From the NCBI GenBank assembly GCA_963663165.1, contig OY760175.1:6336001-6400000 (forward strand): 64,000 nt of DNA. The letters run 5' to 3'. Origin of the DNA: an uncultured Desulfospira sp. (GTDB taxonomy: Bacteria; Desulfobacterota; Desulfobacteria; Desulfobacterales; Desulfobacteraceae). The stretch's first letter is position 1; every line of letters begins with the position of its first letter. The notes below the pieces were generated by a model. It worked only from the letters and a program-made list of their open reading frames with translations. It was not told the origin of the DNA and made no database searches. The position numbers and the translations under genes are program-made. Below, piece by piece: positions 1 through 45,105 of the stretch.

Positions 1-1379
1 TTTATTTTCCAATTCTCATATTCTGAAGGTCGCAACCGGTAACGGGCAATATTGCCTTCATGCAGGCCTATCAATTCCGTTTCGACAACTTCAACAAAAC
101 GCTCCCTTTCTTTTGACTCAATTTTTTCAATTGCACATTCTTTTATGTAAGACACAGCCATCTTTTTATTCATGCCGTCACGCACAACATTATTTACAAC
201 ATTGAAAATGGTTGCACGATGGCGAAGCCGGAAAGGATCTGGCTCCCCAAGTGAACTGCGGACAGCTGAATAGCGGTCGCAAGAACGCTCATATGCCCAT
301 ATAAAAACATCCCTGAGCAACGCCACTCTATTCAGTTCATATACCCCCATTAGCCCGTCAACATAAGCTTGTTCAGGCACATCTACAAATGAAAGTGGGC
401 ACAAATTATCTCGAATAAGGGGAATGTTTGCAGATAGGCGTGAAACCCTCTTGTTCACATCCTCGAATGGCTGGAGATACGGCAAATGAACCATCGCAAA
501 AAAAGCCTGTTCGAATGGGTTCTCTATTGCAGTGGCTTTCTCAAGCACTTGCGAAAAAGACTCTTCTATCCGCTGTGGTACTTCCAAGGGTATATATACT
601 GTCCCACTTATTCCGACTGGGATGGCGCGTAACTTTCCGCAGGCCCTTGAATCAGCCAGCAGGTTGTCAGAGAGAAGCGCATGAAGATTGCAAATTGTAT
701 AGCTGTTGAACCCGACTTCCTGCGCCTGTTCCACCAATAGTTCGATAGCCGCTTTATGGTTCAGAATCATTTGTGATTCTATCGCCTGTTTGCCCTCGGC
801 GACCTCTCCAAATTCAAGCAAACGATCAGTTTCAAGCAAAGAGTAAGTATTGCCCTCTAGACGGCTTGAATTCCATGACAGATCAATTAAAACACGATTA
901 AATACCTTGCGTGCATAGGTTCCGGCCGGCCTATGACCATCCGACGATTGGCCCTTTTCAAAAAGGCGCCGGCGAATCTCAAGAGAAAGGTAAAAGGTTT
1001 TATTAGGAATATACTCATCGATAAACCTTTGGTTATACCCGACAGGTTGACGGTTCTGAATCGGTTGGCGGACTACCTGCTTTATTTTCTCTCCCTCCCG
1101 GGAGACGGGAATATAAACCTCGCCATGAGACTCTAATTTAAGAGAAGGAAGCTTGGCATCTAATCCTGCTATTGCTTTCACAACATACCTGCTACTGCGT
1201 CCCCTGCCTTTTAAAATTAACTTCTTCTGTCCAACAAGGTTACTGAGACGGCGTTGCAGAGTCCGACGGGATAATTTTTCCATGACAATGCTGATATCTT
1301 TTATTGAGGCACCCTCAGGGAATTGACCAACGGCTTTCAGAACATCATCTAATTCATTTTGTGGTATATACTTTGGCAT
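1..1379 (-). CDS. Fic-domain protein with N-terminal HTH-like region; 3' end runs off the window
   Basis: Not in the ORF track (no stop codon in window). Manual translation from ATG 1379: MPKYIPQNE...LSRRTLQRRLSNLV...PAGTYARKVFNRVLIDLSWNSSRLEGNTYSLLET...YLQPFEDVNKRVSRLSANIP...HEGNIARYRLRPSEYENW. Contains a variant Fic motif and an SxxxEG/N inhibitory motif. Confidence 0.88.
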   Translation of the reverse strand, partial: MPKYIPQNELDDVLKAVGQFPEGASIKDISIVMEKLSRRTLQRRLSNLVGQKKLILKGRGRSSRYVVKAIAGLDAKLPSLKLESHGEVYIPVSREGEKIKQVVRQPIQNRQPVGYNQRFIDEYIPNKTFYLSLEIRRRLFEKGQSSDGHRPAGTYARKVFNRVLIDLSWNSSRLEGNTYSLLETDRLLEFGEVAEGKQAIESQMILNHKAAIELLVEQAQEVGFNSYTICNLHALLSDNLLADSRACGKLRAIPVGISGTVYIPLEVPQRIEESFSQVLEKATAIENPFEQAFFAMVHLPYLQPFEDVNKRVSRLSANIPLIRDNLCPLSFVDVPEQAYVDGLMGVYELNRVALLRDVFIWAYERSCDRYSAVRSSLGEPDPFRLRHRATIFNVVNNVVRDGMNKKMAVSYIKECAIEKIESKERERFVEVVETELIGLHEGNIARYRLRPSEYENWKI

Positions 1380-1385
1380 GATAAC

Positions 1386-1457
1386 TATATGGCACATTTT
1401 CTATAATTGCGCCATATTAATTTTTATATGGCGCAATTATAGAAAATGTGCCATATA
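1386..1457. promoter_or_regulatory. Perfect 32-bp inverted repeat with 8-nt spacer, immediately upstream of the Fic gene; candidate operator
   Basis: tatatggcacattttctataattgcgccatat (1386-1417) and its exact reverse complement (1426-1457). Confidence 0.7.
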
Positions 1458-1725: not shown

Positions 1726-2030
1726 ATGCTATTAACTCCGGATAGAATCAGGACGCTTCAGAGGAAGCTTTATTGTAAAGCCAAGCAGGAACCGGATTTC
1801 CGTTTTTATTCTTTTATATGAAAGTCTCACTAACGTCCTGAGAAGACTTTCAATATTTGTTGTGGGCGGCTCTTGGTTGGATAACCAAAGCGGCCCGTGG
1901 CCGTTATACGACAAGGTCTATCGGGCAGATATCCTTGGTCATGCCTATTGCCTTGCCCGGGCTAATAAAGGTGCACCTGGAATAGACGGTGTCAGCTTTA
2001 AGTCCATAGAGAAGGATGAAATTGAGGTTA
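1726..2030 (+). pseudogene. ltrA: Group II intron reverse transcriptase/maturase N-terminal fragment, interrupted and truncated
   Basis: [29 protein letters not shown] [91-bp insert] [36 protein letters not shown], the typical RT0 region. Similarity is lost after about 2030. Confidence 0.85.
1813..1903. mobile_element. 91-bp non-autonomous hairpin mini-element (family A), copy 1, inserted in the RT
   Basis: Deleting 1813-1903 restores TCT TTA TAC GAC AAG (SLYDK). 1812-1907 matches the reverse complement of 45010-45105 with 7 differences in 96 nt. Confidence 0.85.
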
Positions 2031-2232
2031 GAAGTCCCCGGCAACTGCCGAGGACGTTTCTTAATCAGTGCTCTACTCTACCCCGAATTCTGCTACCCCG
2101 AATTCTGTCCCCCGAATTCGCGCTACCAGAAGCAATAGTGGTCATTCAGCGAGCCATACTCAACATATTGAACAGGTCCGTTTTTTGGATGGCCTTGCCC
2201 CGGACTTTTTTTGTTTTCTATATCCAGTCTTA

Positions 2233-2342: not shown

Positions 2343-4802
2343 TTACGGCGCGGGCGTTGTGTTTTCCTTCAGGTCAAAGTAGAATTTTACCGCAAGGGAC
2401 AAAGAGGCCAGTTTGGACTGGGTGGAGTCTCCCCGGGAGGTGAGGATCAGCGGCATGTCGCCGCAGAGGATGACACCGGCCAGGGCGGCGCCGGACTGGG
2501 TTGTCAGGGTCTTCCACAACACGTTGCCGGCATCGATGTCCGGTAAAATCAGCACATCGGCGTTGCCCCTGATTTTGCCCGTATAGTGTTTCTCTTCGGC
2601 AATGGCCGGCTCCATGGCCACGTCAATGGACAGCGGGCCTTCCACAATACAGTCGTCCCGGCCGGCAAACCGCTGGGCAATCCGTTCGGCTTCAATGGAG
2701 CTGTCCACGCTCCGGTTCACATTCTCAACCGCTGAAATCACGGCCACTTTGGGAACTTTGATGTTCAGGTTATGGACCACCTTTAAGGCGTTTTCAAGAA
2801 TGGCCACCCGCTTTGCCTCATCGGGATAGGTGTTCAGGGCCCCGTCGGAAAAGGCCAAGAGCTTGCTTCTGGTGGGAATGTCCACAATGGCGGTGTGGCT
2901 CATGACCTGGCCTTTGACCAGCCGGCCTGTTCGTTTCAGGTACTTGATGATGCCCCTTAAAATGTCTTCGGTGTGGATCAGCCCTTTCATGAGAATGTCC
3001 ACCTTGCCTTCATCCAGCAGCTCAATGGCCTTGTCAATGGGATTTTCCGTATCCACAATGGTATAATTTTCATTGTCAATGACCAGGTCATACTCATAGG
3101 CGATCCGGTTAATCTCCTGAAAGTCACCCAAAAGGACAAATTTGGCCAGCCTGAACCGCCCCTCTTCATTGGCCCGTTTGGCCGCCTGGATGGCCTCTTC
3201 GTTATTGGCCCCGACAATGGCGATGGCCGGGGCATAGTTCTCCTTGACCGTGAGATAGGCCGCGTCAATCACATCATCTATGGAGGTTAGGGGAGCGCCT
3301 TTTTTCTTGAACCGGATTTCCCGCTTGAAAATGGTGGTGTCAATGAGCTCATCTTCGGCGTGCCGTTTTTTTCTTAAGGCGTCCCGCTCGGTTTCATAAT
3401 CTTTTAATATTTCCGGCGCGTAGAACCCCTGGATCTGTCCGGCTGCCAGGGCTTCGTTCTCAAAATATCCGGGCATGACCACCACCGGGTAACGGCCCCG
3501 GATGTTGTGCTTGACCCTTCGCATCATGTCCGGGTTGGCGGCAAGGCCGCCGGTGATCACCATGACCTTGACATTGGCCCCGTCAGCGGTCAGCTTTAAC
3601 ATGCCGCCGGCAATGCCCCGGGCCAGGAAATCCTGGACCAGGCCGATTTTTTTTCTCTGTACCGGGGTTGCCCCCTGGCGCAGGAAAGCGAGCATGGCGT
3701 AAAAATCATTGGTCCCCACCAGGGACAACAGGCCGCCCCGCTCGGTCAGCACCTGCCCTAAGTCCTTGAGGGAAAATTCATTGTTCTTAATGGCGGAAAG
3801 GACCCTGTCAATATCAAGGGCGCCGCTCCGGCTGGTGGAGGCCAGGCCTGAATAGGCATCAATGAGCATGCTGACCCGACCCCTTCTATGGGCCGCCAAA
3901 GATGTCCCCCCGCCCACATGGGCGGTTACGGCATCAAGCTGTTCCGGTTCCTGATTCATCAGGGATGCCACCAGCCGCCATACGGCCTTATGGCTTAAAT
4001 AATGGCCGCCGGCACCGTTTCGTTTGATCTTCACGAACCCGGTCACCCGGTCGACAAGGTCAAGTTCGTCACAGACAAAGGGATCGGTGGTGGTCAACAG
4101 CAGTTCCTTCTGGCTGTCGGCCAGTTCGGCCAGTTTCAGTCCCATGGAGATCCCCATATTGCTGGCGTGGGGGCGCAGGGGGGTTTCCACAAGGTCCGTG
4201 ACCATTTCGGGGACCACCCGGTAGGTGCCGCTGGGGATGGGCTGCAAAAAACCGCCCTGGCAGGCAATGCCGGAAAGGGTCTTAAGGGGGATGCCGGCCT
4301 GCTCTAAATGGGCGGCCACCGAGGCGACCCGGTGTTCAATGCCGTCGGCCTCATCGGGCAGCAGGTGGATTTCAAACTTGTGGATCTGCTCTACCCCCTG
4401 GTAAACGGCGATCCGTGTGGATACGGTGCCCGGGTTAATCAACAAAAATTTAAGGTTGCCCTCTAAAGCCTCCCCCACCAGGGGGTCACCCACCAGGCGG
4501 CGGACCACGAAGGCCTTGGCATTGCCTTTGCGCTCCATTTCAAGCATCAGGGTCAGGGCGTTGCCGAGAATGGCATTGACCTGGGCGGACGGCGGGGATT
4601 TGAGCAAAACGTCAATCACCGAAGCCAGCTCGCTTTTGGCCATCAGCAGATCTGAGGCACTGGGCTCCTCTTTTATTAACTGCGCCAGTTCTGCGAACCA
4701 AACATCGCTTGATACAGAAAGCTGCCGCTCAAAGGCCGACATGGATACACTGATTTTACCAATTTGAGCTACTGTTTCAAGCACTCTGTCACGAAGTTCC
4801 AC
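2343..4802 (-). CDS. Butyrate kinase-like domain fused to phosphate butyryltransferase, with ~115-aa N-terminal extension
   Basis: Buk motifs LINPGTVST, HASNMG, DPFVCDE, AHVGGGTS, ITGGLA. Ptb motifs LMKGLIHT, VEGPLSIDVA, PDIDAGN, LTSRGDS. SD aaggag before GTG. Confidence 0.88.
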   Translation of the reverse strand: MELRDRVLETVAQIGKISVSMSAFERQLSVSSDVWFAELAQLIKEEPSASDLLMAKSELASVIDVLLKSPPSAQVNAILGNALTLMLEMERKGNAKAFVVRRLVGDPLVGEALEGNLKFLLINPGTVSTRIAVYQGVEQIHKFEIHLLPDEADGIEHRVASVAAHLEQAGIPLKTLSGIACQGGFLQPIPSGTYRVVPEMVTDLVETPLRPHASNMGISMGLKLAELADSQKELLLTTTDPFVCDELDLVDRVTGFVKIKRNGAGGHYLSHKAVWRLVASLMNQEPEQLDAVTAHVGGGTSLAAHRRGRVSMLIDAYSGLASTSRSGALDIDRVLSAIKNNEFSLKDLGQVLTERGGLLSLVGTNDFYAMLAFLRQGATPVQRKKIGLVQDFLARGIAGGMLKLTADGANVKVMVITGGLAANPDMMRRVKHNIRGRYPVVVMPGYFENEALAAGQIQGFYAPEILKDYETERDALRKKRHAEDELIDTTIFKREIRFKKKGAPLTSIDDVIDAAYLTVKENYAPAIAIVGANNEEAIQAAKRANEEGRFRLAKFVLLGDFQEINRIAYEYDLVIDNENYTIVDTENPIDKAIELLDEGKVDILMKGLIHTEDILRGIIKYLKRTGRLVKGQVMSHTAIVDIPTRSKLLAFSDGALNTYPDEAKRVAILENALKVVHNLNIKVPKVAVISAVENVNRSVDSSIEAERIAQRFAGRDDCIVEGPLSIDVAMEPAIAEEKHYTGKIRGNADVLILPDIDAGNVLWKTLTTQSGAALAGVILCGDMPLILTSRGDSTQSKLASLSLAVKFYFDLKENTTPAP

Positions 4803-4811
4803 ACGTTCTCC

Positions 4812-6677
4812 TTACTTTTCTTCTAAATCTTCGGCCGGGCTGGAATTCGCCCCAAGGCCGGTATCTTCAACGGCTGCGTCTTCTTCTGATGCCATACGGC
4901 GAAGCATGGGCCTGAATAATTTTCCGGTCACCGTCCTTGGCATCTGCTTTGTGATAATGATTTTTTCAGGGACGGCAAAATCACCGATTTTTTCACAAAT
5001 ATAGTCTGATAATATTGACATAACCCTCTGGTCGTCCTCAATGTCCTTTCTGGGAACCACAAAGGCGGCCAGTTCTTCTCCGGATGGCCCTGGCACGCCG
5101 ATCACTGCGGCTTCATTCACGTCGGGATGGGCTGAAATCATGGTCTCAATCAGCGAGGTGTCCAAAGACTGCCCCTTAATTTTGAGGACATTGTCCAGAC
5201 GCTCCATAAACCAGAAAAATCCGTCCTGGTCGGACCTGACCCCGTCATAGGTGAGGAAATATCCGGGAAACCGGCAAAAATGCCTTTTCTTAAAGTGATC
5301 AAAGGTGCCAAAGGTCGGCTTGGCCATGGCGGGCCATGACCCGGCAAATACCAGGTTGCCGCTCACGTTTGTTTTGCATGGCTGGCCAAGGTCGCTCATG
5401 GTCAGCGGCTCAACCCCTAAGGCGCCGAATCCCAGTGCGCCGGGCTGGTTTAACCCCGGGGAGGGGTAAGTATGAATCAGGGCCGTACCGCTTTTGCTCT
5501 GCACCCACAGGTTGACCACCCGCTCGGGAAACTGGACCAGGGTGCCGGCGGCAAATTTGATCAGCCGGGGGGGCAGGGCGTCTTCACAACAGGCAACGAC
5601 TGAAAACCGGTTCGGGCTGTTCAGTGTGTCGCTGCCCAGTTGGCTTCTAATGTCCGACAGCAGGGTGGGGCGGCAGATCAACGCGGGATTTTTTGTGTTT
5701 TCAAGGATATATTCAATGGTTTGTTTTTCCGGCGCGTCTTGGGTCATCATAATCGGCGTGCCGTTGAGCAGCGGCCCCCAAAGGCCATAGGCCTGGCCGT
5801 GGCCTTTGGACAGGTCAATGGCGGTAACCAGGGTTTCGGGTTTGTCCGGGGACAGTGCCTGATTGAATATTAAATCAAAAGAAGTATGGGCCTGGACCAG
5901 AAATCCACCCGTAGAAAAAACCGCTCCCATATGTTTGCCGGACAGGCGGTTTCCGTATATGGCAAACAACGGATGATCCGCTAAGGGATATGCCGGTTCC
6001 GGCCGTTGGGAAGGGGCAGAAGACATATAGTCCGAAAAGGTCTTCAGATCCCCTAACTTTTCCCCCACCACGATGCCGTCAATGGACGGCATCAGGTCAT
6101 AAACGGCTTTGGCGTGGTCATGGCCGTCACTGTCTTCGGGCCGGTTGGCCATGATGATCAGCCTGGACCTGGATGTTTTGACATCTGAGGCGGCAACTTC
6201 TGCCGGCAGATGGCCGCCAATGGGCAGATAGGTGATGCCAAGATAGGCGGCGGCCAGGGCAGTAATGACAAATTCAGGGCAGTGCGGCAGGATCAGGGCA
6301 ATGCAGTCCCCCTCTTTGAGTCCGTTTTTCTGGAAGGCGGCGGCCAGCTTGAGGACCTCCTCTTTGAGTTCATTGAAGGTATAGGTTACGGTGTCTTTGG
6401 CCTGCCGGTAAAAGATAAGGGCCGTCTGGTCTCCGAGCCCCTGTTCGATGGGCCTGTTAAGGGCATTTTCAGCCGCGTTGATTCTGCCGTTACAAAACCA
6501 GGAATAAGCCACTTTGGAGAAATCTTCCTGAACCACCGCGGTAAAGTTTTTATGCCAGTTCAAGCGCCCGGCCTGTCCGGACCAGAACTGCTCCCGGTGG
6601 TCAAGCGCCTGCCGTTGCAAAAGCCGAAATTCGTTGAGACGACCGGGCAGTTTCTGCATAAAGTCAAATTGTTCCAT
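4812..6677 (-). CDS. Acetyl-CoA synthetase-like (ANL family) protein with degenerate motifs
   Basis: Acs-type N-terminus (FWSGQAGRLNW...WFCNGRINAAENAL), IETMISAHPDVNEAAVIG, PRTVTGK. Start placed at ATG 6677 after SD gaggagga. Confidence 0.82.
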   Translation of the reverse strand: MEQFDFMQKLPGRLNEFRLLQRQALDHREQFWSGQAGRLNWHKNFTAVVQEDFSKVAYSWFCNGRINAAENALNRPIEQGLGDQTALIFYRQAKDTVTYTFNELKEEVLKLAAAFQKNGLKEGDCIALILPHCPEFVITALAAAYLGITYLPIGGHLPAEVAASDVKTSRSRLIIMANRPEDSDGHDHAKAVYDLMPSIDGIVVGEKLGDLKTFSDYMSSAPSQRPEPAYPLADHPLFAIYGNRLSGKHMGAVFSTGGFLVQAHTSFDLIFNQALSPDKPETLVTAIDLSKGHGQAYGLWGPLLNGTPIMMTQDAPEKQTIEYILENTKNPALICRPTLLSDIRSQLGSDTLNSPNRFSVVACCEDALPPRLIKFAAGTLVQFPERVVNLWVQSKSGTALIHTYPSPGLNQPGALGFGALGVEPLTMSDLGQPCKTNVSGNLVFAGSWPAMAKPTFGTFDHFKKRHFCRFPGYFLTYDGVRSDQDGFFWFMERLDNVLKIKGQSLDTSLIETMISAHPDVNEAAVIGVPGPSGEELAAFVVPRKDIEDDQRVMSILSDYICEKIGDFAVPEKIIITKQMPRTVTGKLFRPMLRRMASEEDAAVEDTGLGANSSPAEDLEEK

Positions 6678-6806
6678 GGGGTCCTCCTCAAATTGAACCA
6701 TTCACAGGGGTTATGTCTGGGCCTTGGATCCGGGCGGCCTGGCGGGTTAAAGTGCTCCTAACCAGCTGTCCGGACAAGGGTTTTTGATCAGGTGGTTGTA
6801 CCAATA

Positions 6807-6866
6807 ATAACGGCCACGGGCCGCCTTGGTTATCCAACCAAGAACCGCCCACAACGAATAATGAAA
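6807..6866. repeat. Family A mini-element, partial copy
   Basis: ataacggccacgggccgccttggttatccaaccaagaaccgcccacaacgaataatgaaa matches the start of 45010-45105, then diverges. Confidence 0.8.
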
Positions 6867-9642: not shown

Positions 9643-11328
9643 TTACCCGTATAACGATTTTTTCTGCATGATGTCTTTTAGCACAGATGCCGCGCCACAG
9701 ATCCGGTCCCCGGAGATCAAATCTTTCATGGCCGTTTCATCGGAAAAGGTGGTGAGCAAAGCTGCGGCAACGGCCTTGCCGCTCTTTATTAACTGGGCCA
9801 TGGGCTCGGCGGGTTGTGCTCCGGCACAAACATGGGTATCAAAAAAAATCCGGTAAAAGTCCCGCTGGGGCTTGTAATGGCCGGCATATTCACTGAGGTA
9901 TTTTTTGATGATGGTTCCTGTCTTTCGGGGGGACGGATCTTCTGCCGCTTGCCGGCAAATCCCCGTATAACAGGCCGCTATCAGGGCCGAACGGACATCA
10001 ACCATGATGTGCCTTGTCCGGTCCCGGGTGGCCCGGCAGATGAGATCGCAAAAATTTATAAGGGGTTCGAGCTGCTCTATGTCAATTTTAAGAATCAGTG
10101 AGACATAGGCCGTTTGCAGGGCTTGTTTTTCATTCTTGAGCCGCTCTTCGGGAAGATCTAATTTCTCCGCCGCCCGGGCAAGGTCCCGGATGGTCCTCTC
10201 AATGGATGCCATATCTGCCTCGCCCATTTCAAGCTGTTCAACAGCTGTTTTGAACAAGAGTCTGAAAATATCAAAATAGATGGGAGAATAGACGGGGGCG
10301 TTCTGAAAAGTGGCTGCAAAACGGGTTATATCCGGGTAGTTGAACAACATATTCAGGCGATAGCGCAACTGGGCAAGTCCCAGGTTTTTAAGGATATCCG
10401 TACGGCCGTCTTTCCCCGGCTTGGTATTTAAAAAAAGCCAGGTGAGGTTCTGTCTAAGGGCGTCATGGGTTTCGCCCAGGACAATGGGATATGACAGTCC
10501 CACAAGACCCATGAGACGGTGGGCCGCTGCCAAATACGCATCTGTTTTTTTTAGAATGGTAAGAATGGCGGCATCCAGGCTTCCCATTAATTGGAGGTAT
10601 TTTCTTTTGTTTTTTCCATGGACAAACACCTTGGCCCGGGCGGTCATTATCTTGGTGAACAATTCATTGCATGCGGCCATTTCTTTATGGGATTTTTTCA
10701 GGGTTCGGGCCTTGGCCTCTTCTGCCATGGGCGGCAGGCTTGATCCGGTCAGCCGGCAGATGAGGCCTGCATTACTGATTTCATCCAGGTCGTGGCGCCA
10801 GGACCTGTCCTGGTTGAGGCTTTGGGCCAGGCCGTCAAGGGTCTTGTTTACCAGCTCATTGTAATTTCGTCCGGCATTGCTTCCAATGATTATTTTCGAC
10901 AGGTCCGGGGACAAGAGGGCGTTATCCACTGTCCCTTTACAGGTTTTGAAACTGTTGAAATAGGTGATGATTATGTTGGTGCTCAACAGCTCAATGGCCG
11001 TTTTGCTGTCCGCTGCCAGAATCTTTTCTAAAGGCACGCTGAACCCGCAGACAAAGGAAACCGCCTCGGCCTCCATGCTGAATTCCCGGAAAAGTGCGTA
11101 AAGGGCTTCAACATATTCATCCGGGAAAAAATCACCTGCCCTGGCCATTTCATCAAGAAAAAATCGGATGATGATCTGGGCGTGGACCAGGGGACGCCCC
11201 TTTGCGTCGGTTTTATGTTGTTCTAAAGGGGACAGGCCTTTGGTGCCCTGCACAAGGAGGCCGGACACCTTTTGTTTATAAAGCCGTTCTTTTAATTTTT
11301 TTATTTTATTGGGGCTAAGTATTGCCAT
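9643..11328 (-). CDS. Hypothetical helical protein, 561 aa, overlapping the end of the FapA gene
   Basis: Long ORF whose start overlaps the upstream gene end by 14 bp; no recognised motif. Confidence 0.75.
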   Translation of the reverse strand: MAILSPNKIKKLKERLYKQKVSGLLVQGTKGLSPLEQHKTDAKGRPLVHAQIIIRFFLDEMARAGDFFPDEYVEALYALFREFSMEAEAVSFVCGFSVPLEKILAADSKTAIELLSTNIIITYFNSFKTCKGTVDNALLSPDLSKIIIGSNAGRNYNELVNKTLDGLAQSLNQDRSWRHDLDEISNAGLICRLTGSSLPPMAEEAKARTLKKSHKEMAACNELFTKIMTARAKVFVHGKNKRKYLQLMGSLDAAILTILKKTDAYLAAAHRLMGLVGLSYPIVLGETHDALRQNLTWLFLNTKPGKDGRTDILKNLGLAQLRYRLNMLFNYPDITRFAATFQNAPVYSPIYFDIFRLLFKTAVEQLEMGEADMASIERTIRDLARAAEKLDLPEERLKNEKQALQTAYVSLILKIDIEQLEPLINFCDLICRATRDRTRHIMVDVRSALIAACYTGICRQAAEDPSPRKTGTIIKKYLSEYAGHYKPQRDFYRIFFDTHVCAGAQPAEPMAQLIKSGKAVAAALLTTFSDETAMKDLISGDRICGAASVLKDIMQKKSLYG

Positions 11329-35292: not shown

Positions 35293-35422
35293 ACGGTCAT
35301 ACCTTTAAGGGCAGAAACCGGACCGTCTTTGGTTATCCGGCCAGGCAGCGGACACAAAAAAAAATGAAAGTTTTTTCAGAACGTTTGGCAGCGATTTCAT
35401 ATGAAACTTCAGGACATCAATC

Positions 35423-45009: not shown

Positions 45010-45105
45010 ATAACGGCCACAGGCCGTCTTGGTTATCCAACCAAGAACCGCCCACAACAAATAATGAAAGTCTTCTCAAGATGTTAGTGAGACTTTCATA
45101 TAAAA
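45010..45105. mobile_element. Family A mini-element, full-length copy 2 (opposite orientation to copy 1)
   Basis: Reverse complement of 1812-1907 with 7 differences. Confidence 0.85.

Follow-up and report, generated by a model that had tools for sequence, protein, structure and literature searches.

A conserved gene pair in Desulfobacteraceae links a probable pseudo-acetyl-CoA synthetase to a butyrate kinase-phosphotransbutyrylase fusion

The 64,000-nucleotide (nt) stretch of DNA from an uncultured Desulfospira sp. analysed here (contig OY760175.1, positions 6,336,001 to 6,400,000; hereafter, the window) carries a pair of genes that encode a homologue of acetyl-CoA synthetase (Acs; AMP-forming), probably devoid of ligase activity and denoted pseudo-Acs below, and a fusion of a helical bundle with a butyrate kinase (Buk) and a phosphotransbutyrylase (Ptb). 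The two minus-strand open reading frames (ORFs), 4812-6701(-) and 2343-4802(-), are separated by 9 nt, the spacing given in the preliminary description of this DNA. The second ATG of the upstream ORF, at 6677, is preceded by a Shine-Dalgarno-like purine run and yields a form of 621 amino acids (aa; 4812-6677) that is also present in the protein collection (P0121). The features of the locus are the following.

4812-6677 (-): putative pseudo-acetyl-CoA synthetase, ANL fold, 621 aa (Pfam domains, TIGR02188 score, and ratio of nonsynonymous to synonymous substitution rates, dN/dS)
5925-5957 (-): remodelled P-loop (motif A3), residues 241-251 (alignment with controls)
5487-5513 (-): motif A5, residues 389-397, with W391 kept and K395 in place of the Mg-binding Glu (alignment)
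4920-4922 (-): lysine K586 of motif A10, the residue acylated in Acs enzymes (alignment)
4803-4811 (-): intergenic gap, 9 nt
2343-4802 (-): fusion of a helical bundle, a butyrate kinase and a phosphotransbutyrylase in a single chain of 819 aa (profiles, AlphaFold2, Foldseek)
4452-4802 (-): N-terminal three-helix bundle, residues 1-117 (AlphaFold2 model, profile search)
3342-4451 (-): butyrate kinase (ASKHA) domain, residues 118-487 (template modelling score, TM, of 0.90 to Thermotoga maritima Buk2)
4257-4259 (-): Gln182, an Arg in butyrate kinases (Arg74 of T. maritima Buk2; alignments)
2364-3281 (-): phosphotransbutyrylase domain, residues 508-813 (S789/R790, dN/dS)

A promoter scan of the locus yielded 4 candidates where 3.6 would arise by chance, and an Rfam scan of the locus gave no match at the gathering score. 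Both genes of one relative (L051) are covered by four metatranscriptome assemblies, as are their neighbours, and the junction between the two genes is spanned by one contig each in two metatranscriptome runs, with DNA possibly present in these libraries, so that this coverage need not reflect transcription.

The two genes are tightly linked, as the preliminary description had proposed to examine. In a sample of 151 genomes of the window's family, the fusion has matches in 25 and the Acs-like protein in the identical 25, with the genes adjacent in every one of these. The carriers comprise all three genomes of genus g1, including the one that contributes the window, and 22 of the 25 genomes of genus g3, with none in the 17 other genera; the three g3 genomes that lack both genes are 95-97% complete. 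With a distant fusion as the query, no match was obtained in a sample of 400 other genomes of the phylum, each at least 85% complete, only one of which belongs to the window's family. Protein searches identify at least 120 relatives of the fusion, with source names that include Desulfospira, Desulfobacter, Latescibacterota, Myxococcota and Krumholzibacteria, and this patchy distribution suggests that the fusion spread horizontally. In distant metagenome loci that contain a bundle-type (type A) fusion, pseudo-Acs is located directly upstream in 14 of 15 cases (the exception is L102). The two genes are on the same strand, 2-262 nt apart, in all 36 loci where both are near full length. The pairwise distances of the two proteins are correlated (Spearman 0.92 for 32 loci and 0.59 for the 10 distant loci among them), which shared ancestry alone suffices to explain, and the trees of the two genes broadly agree.

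The relatives fall into three layouts. In type A, pseudo-Acs and the fusion are followed by a gene for a CoA-transferase fused to a GNAT domain in 5 of the 11 distant loci with downstream DNA and, additionally, in L069. In type B, represented by 11 loci, the fusion is accompanied by a Zn-deacetylase gene, in 10 of these also by the GNAT fusion, and there is no Acs match. In type C (L114-L116), the GNAT fusion and Buk-Ptb (split in L116) are found together with an Acs that lacks D478 and R493 and retains the lysine motif, and two of these three loci also contain an ADP-forming synthetase-like gene. None of the 11 deacetylase loci has an Acs match, and no deacetylase match was obtained at any pseudo-Acs locus within L066-L089 and L114-L116, a mutual exclusion that stems from about three clades.

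Both genes are under purifying selection, and no part of the unit is decaying neutrally. The dN/dS values were obtained by the Nei-Gojobori method from 21 sequences (210 pairs), using the pairs with dS between 0.05 and 1.5. The value for the Acs-like gene is 0.21, with a maximum of 0.29 (146 of the 210 pairs); within the fusion, it is 0.24 for the bundle (163 pairs), 0.125 for Buk (204 pairs) and 0.065, the lowest in the unit, for Ptb (153 pairs). The ratio near 1 that would have spoken against the preliminary proposal is thus found in neither gene, nor is the lack of co-occurrence elsewhere that would also have done so, and pseudogene decay is rejected by the dN/dS values.

The Acs-like protein contains the ACAS_N, AMP-binding and AMP-binding_C domains, all three above the Pfam cut-offs, and can be aligned end to end with Salmonella Acs, so that it is indeed full length, as described previously; its score against the acetate--CoA ligase profile TIGR02188 is 293 bits, below the cut-off of 725. 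In a FastTree phylogeny, the pseudo-Acs family is a monophyletic clade, sister to Acs. The family alignment consists of 51 type A members, three highly decayed relatives (L114-L116) and 73 canonical Acs and PrpE controls; L046, L054, L057, L058, L068, L072 and L073 are outside this alignment.

The family departs from the controls in the P-loop, where no more than three of the six consensus positions are kept in 54 of 54 family members, compared with five or six in 73 of 73 controls; most of the near members retain a single consensus residue, and the sequence of the loop varies among the subgroups of the family. The FGG-type stretch at 154-157, near-invariant in the controls, is replaced in type A proteins, and positions 292-296, 392 and 504 also differ from near-invariant control residues. 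From the Salmonella structure, we take 154-157 to be the CoA pocket and 292-296 together with 392 to be the acetyl pocket, and presume the role of 504 on the same ground. The acyl-pocket Trp of Acs is replaced by a smaller residue. In motif A5, the Thr-Glu pair of Acs, which contacts phosphate and Mg, is S394/K395 in the protein of the window, and position 395 is Lys in 33 of the 35 near members and Glu in 11 of the 16 distant ones.

The other side of the site is preserved. The A7 Asp, the A8 Arg, Asp and Gly and the A10 Lys are intact in the window's protein (D478, R493, D495, G502 and K586), and W391, D478, R493, G502, E511 and K586 are retained in all 51 type A proteins, which also share N389 and K499 without exception. 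The roles assigned to these motifs, including the adenine-stacking Trp and the Mg-binding Glu of A5, follow PMC11255334. Every one of the 54 aligned members has Lys at the A10 position; this extends to L114-L116, the most decayed relatives, in which the lysine motif survives the loss of D478 and R493. Full-length frames of pseudo-Acs persist down to 31% identity. The four substituted motifs and the kept lysine noted in the preliminary description are correct for the window, but the hinge change is private to it: 43 of 47 members have Gly in place of E492, and 46 of 47 have Asp in place of N496, so that the hinge is normal in the family.

Given the loss of the P-loop, pseudo-Acs is likely to be unable to adenylate and to be no longer a ligase, and the initial identification of the gene as a probable pseudo-synthetase appears to be well founded. 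We read the pattern as loss of the pyrophosphate, Mg and CoA sides of the Acs site, with the AMP side and the switch lysine apparently kept.

The AlphaFold2 model of the fusion has a predicted local distance difference test (pLDDT) score of 90.6 and a predicted TM score of 0.80. In Foldseek searches, the kinase domain matches T. maritima Buk2 (1saz, E 1.7e-30, TM 0.90), and the Ptb domain matches Clostridium acetobutylicum Ptb (7vg9, TM about 0.9 on the target). The scores against the respective NCBIfam profiles are 188 bits for butyrate kinase (TIGR02707, cut-off 289) and 238 bits for phosphate butyryltransferase (TIGR02706, cut-off 410.5), both below the cut-off. The Ser-Arg pair of Ptb, S789/R790, is present in 59 of 59 fusions, so that the CoA/phosphate transferase is intact, as previously proposed; the corresponding pair in Pta, Ser309/Arg310, matters for kcat (PMC6461089).

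In the kinase site, N123, D240, H267, H295, R325, G418/G419 and E450 are kept; the site residues of AckA are given in PMC3475010. Position 182, which is aligned with Arg74 of Buk2, is Gln in all 28 fusions of the Desulfobacter/Desulfospira clade. Outside the clade, it is Arg in 27 of the 31 fusions, and Arg is likewise present in each of 14 stand-alone Buks and in the separate Buk of the window's genome. Gln182 may be the counterpart of Arg91 of AckA, but the alignments place the two only in the same loop, within three residues of each other. Loss of Arg91 leaves 0.3% of the kcat of AckA (PMC6461089). On this sequence pattern, the kinase is likely to be weakened in the Desulfobacter/Desulfospira clade and active in the other fusions. 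The notion that both ATP-using modules are degenerate, put forward in the preliminary description, hence stands for the P-loop of the Acs-like protein, but extends to the kinase only in the window's clade. Elsewhere among the fusions, a subclade comprising L083, L086, L088 and L089 has His at position 325 in four sequences, with positions 212 and 215 altered as well, so that the kinase site was apparently weakened a second time, independently, and the type C fusions (L115:1161-3401 and L116:3865-6106, the latter in two ORFs) have lost most of the kinase-site residues.

The 117-residue helical bundle that heads the fusion, N-terminal to Buk and Ptb, went unmentioned in the preliminary description. 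A profile search against 1.84 billion representatives yielded 12 matches, namely 11 fusions or fragments thereof and one unrelated repeat protein, so that the bundle is confined to this fusion among the sequences searched. The profile matches the fusions paired with pseudo-Acs and misses those linked to the deacetylase, a split that is partly circular because the profile was built from type A loci. The bundle has no Foldseek match at E <=0.001 and no usable match in the ESM Atlas. In a VIA search, the best Z-score was 10.3 (root mean square deviation 1.7, 70 aligned residues), under the level that counts for helical bundles; the matches included BAG domains, which bind Hsp70, but these are generic bundles and were dismissed.

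The carriers encode conventional acetate enzymes elsewhere in their genomes. The genome of the window encodes three Acs with intact motifs, and an Acs above the cut-off is found in all 24 other carriers, which rules out pseudo-Acs as the sole Acs of the genome; these 24 also encode a full AckA (23), a long Pta (22) and a deacetylase (24). The genome of the window further contains five CoA-transferase-GNAT genes (L147, L148, L149, L150 and L151), one Pat and one deacetylase, all unlinked to the pair, and the CoA-transferase-GNAT family has matches in 149 of the 151 family genomes. A separate ptb-buk pair in the same genome (L152:6438-8530) adjoins genes for a thioesterase and a divergent HpaB-like protein; two positions that are usually Asn and Asp in Buks are Ala and Asn in this one.

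The interpretation that we favour, tentatively and at somewhat less than an even chance, is that pseudo-Acs regulates the fusion as a non-ligase that binds AMP and is acylated on its lysine. The sensing role suggested at the outset remains, at the same tentative level, the best reading. From the known chemistry of Acs, pseudo-Acs would perform no ATP-dependent adenylation. It may still bind AMP or acyl-AMP. The gene neighbours of the distant copies, the strongest clue and one beyond the reach of the preliminary description, suggest that a CoA-transferase-GNAT or Pat would acylate K586 and that a deacetylase would remove the acyl group. Pseudo-Acs, responding to AMP and to its own acylation, could then dock on the fusion, perhaps via the three-helix bundle, and gate the flux from acyl-CoA to acyl-phosphate and ATP, the fusion being predicted to interconvert acyl-CoA and acyl-phosphate. 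In the window's clade, where the Arg-to-Gln182 replacement would weaken the kinase, Ptb may be the main catalyst, with the kinase fold serving as a second nucleotide-binding module. A multimer prediction for residues 8-600 of pseudo-Acs with residues 1-405 of the fusion, with the kinase shortened and Ptb excluded, gave a score of 0.00, which is evidence neither way.

Several observations weigh against this regulatory role. The carrier genomes are Desulfobacter-like close kin, so that adjacency in 25 of 25 does not amount to 25 independent events. Most of the distant members (11 of 16) have Glu at the Mg-binding position. In L058/L073, which represent one contig of a 56%-complete genome, the tail carrying the lysine is deleted. 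The type C relatives lack the AMP site, so that AMP sensing cannot be universal, and the 11 type B loci and L102 have a fusion without an adjoining pseudo-Acs. No operon-type GNAT fusion was found in the genome of the window or in the 151 family genomes searched (best identity <=46%), and the acylating partner there would accordingly have to be an unlinked paralog. The alignments match Gln182 with Arg91 of AckA only to the level of a shared loop. The retained AMP-site residues would fit residual chemistry equally well. A broader scheme, in which the operons of these anaerobes turned acetate-activation enzymes into a signalling unit, with pseudo-Acs as a free-standing sensor of AMP and carrier of the acyl-lysine that can substitute for the deacetylase, the CoA-transferase-GNAT as the writer and the fusion as the gated output that governs the supply of acyl-phosphate, is possible but less likely than not.

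An alternative that needs no contact with the fusion holds that pseudo-Acs is a decoy, mainly a sink or inhibitor of the lysine acyltransferase that spares the real Acs from acylation while Buk-Ptb is expressed. The persistence of the lysine motif as the last remaining catalytic motif in type C and the separation of pseudo-Acs from the deacetylase in all loci are compatible with such a role, and tight Acs-GNAT complexes are known (PMC11255334). That separation, however, comes from about three clades, the window's clade has lost the linked GNAT gene and still keeps the pair together, and conservation of the AMP site in 51 of 51 proteins is left unexplained, which makes a decoy unlikely.

Altered chemistry, such as an ATP-independent acyl shuttle confined to the acyl-AMP half of the Acs mechanism, for example, acyl exchange among the acyl-phosphate made by Ptb, AMP and a thiol, would account for the AMP-site residues, the hinge and the tunnel Gly502 kept in 51 of 51 proteins; K499 could bind the AMP phosphate, the smaller residue in place of the acyl-pocket Trp would fit, and the partner fusion is predicted to make acyl-phosphate. 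The CoA-pocket residues are lost, though, the P-loop varies with no fixed new motif, type C has lost the whole site, the loci contain no gene for a carrier protein, and no precedent was found; this explanation, too, appears unlikely.

It is improbable that pseudo-Acs, though divergent, is still an active ligase that acts on a larger acid, with a Buk-Ptb of broad specificity offering a second route for that acid. Although the protein is full length, with A7, A8 and A10 largely intact and the acyl pocket enlarged, and most of the distant members have Glu395 and Arg250, a usable P-loop is found in none of the 54 members, Lys replaces the Mg-binding Glu in the window's clade, the CoA contacts are lost, and the 24 other carriers all possess a canonical Acs. 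A relic, that is, a decaying Acs-like gene carried along with a useful Ptb, is very improbable given the low dN/dS over the usable pairs, the full-length frames of even the most divergent members and the broad agreement between the two trees, notwithstanding that the gene has an evolutionary rate about three times that of Ptb and that one copy lacks the lysine.

The surrounding sequence contains several further elements. A dispersed repeat of about 97 nt occurs in the window at 1812-1908 (+), 6807-6866 (-), 45010-45105 and 35319-35406, with 274 blastn matches in the genome, 219 of these of at least 80 nt, and weaker copies in L057, L060 and L065; it has no Rfam match at the gathering score and is possibly a miniature inverted-repeat transposable element or a repetitive extragenic palindrome-like element. 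The 60-nt inverted arms that flank the operon were considered as ends of a mobile unit and rejected, because they are two copies of this genome-wide repeat. A 43-codon stretch at 1904-2032 (+) has no Pfam match and two weak relatives elsewhere in the genome; by its motif, it looks like the beginning of a reverse transcriptase from a group II intron. A near-perfect 35-bp hairpin (1386-1457, 97% complementary) lies around the start of a Fic-domain gene, 3-1397(-), and gives only sub-threshold miRNA-type matches in Rfam. A DDE_5 transposase gene (L154:3888-5177) is located just left of the window, near the Fic gene. At 9643-11328 (-), a 561-aa ORF without a Pfam or NCBIfam match overlaps the end of a FapA-family gene. 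In many g3 genomes (L051-L065), a divergent two-gene ABC exporter is found upstream of the pair, probably through local synteny.

The textbook case of an acetylation switch in bacteria is the acylated lysine of Acs, and this mark is understood to turn the enzyme off. A synthetase apparently without catalysis that retains the switch lysine and the AMP site and is under selection across several phyla would imply that the mark is a signal in its own right. Such a synthetase would also connect a seemingly unstudied CoA-transferase-GNAT family with a likely substrate. In acetate-oxidising sulfate reducers, whose sulfate respiration yields AMP directly, it would offer a point of control over acyl-phosphate that can be tested. 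Where databases label genes of this kind 'acetyl-CoA synthetase' or 'butyrate kinase', they may overstate the pathways that are present.

All domains except the bundle come from known families. The pair, the fusion and the dead Acs are not described in the literature searched, which covered mostly titles and the beginnings of abstracts of papers outside the subscription journals, and no description of an ANL pseudoenzyme as a regulatory subunit was found there. Within that scope, the arrangement with its apparently dead Acs is real, conserved and undescribed.

Four known systems come close. With AMP-forming Acs (Salmonella Acs and Bacillus subtilis AcsA, with the Pat/CobB and AcuA/AcuC switches), pseudo-Acs shares the fold, domain order, AMP-site residues and A10 lysine, and the related fusion operons likewise contain GNAT and Zn-deacetylase genes. 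In contrast to Acs, pseudo-Acs lacks the P-loop and the CoA pocket, so that the switch would be carried by a protein that has no ligase activity left to turn off; its partner gene is a Buk-Ptb fusion, and the GNAT of the operons is fused to a CoA-transferase rather than to an NDP-forming synthetase.

The Ptb-Buk pathway (C. acetobutylicum Ptb and T. maritima Buk2) shares with the fusion both folds, the Ser-Arg pair of Ptb and most of the Buk site residues. The fusion differs in being a single chain, in the Buk-Ptb order, in the extra bundle, in Gln182 of the window's clade and in its scores below the NCBIfam cut-offs; the available part of PMC2700814 describes only separate Buk and Ptb.

Type I and II Pat proteins carry an inactive NDP-forming synthetase domain that senses acetyl-CoA (PMC8556138); here, too, a dead acyl-CoA synthetase has been put to use in sensing a metabolite, as pseudo-Acs may be. 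Pseudo-Acs, in contrast, belongs to the AMP-forming ANL class, is encoded by a separate gene and bears the substrate lysine itself, and the five GNAT types in the available part of that source include no CoA-transferase-fused type.

AcsA is switched off when its A10 lysine is acylated, and the AcsA-AcuA complex, whose built-in phosphotransacetylase activity also converts acetyl-phosphate to acetyl-CoA, then falls apart (PMC11255334). Acetyl-phosphate and CoA are linked in that complex with acylation of the lysine of Acs, as they may be here. However, AcsA is active and AcuA acts as the transacetylase in that complex, whereas the neighbour in the pair described here is a dedicated Ptb, next to an Acs that is apparently dead.

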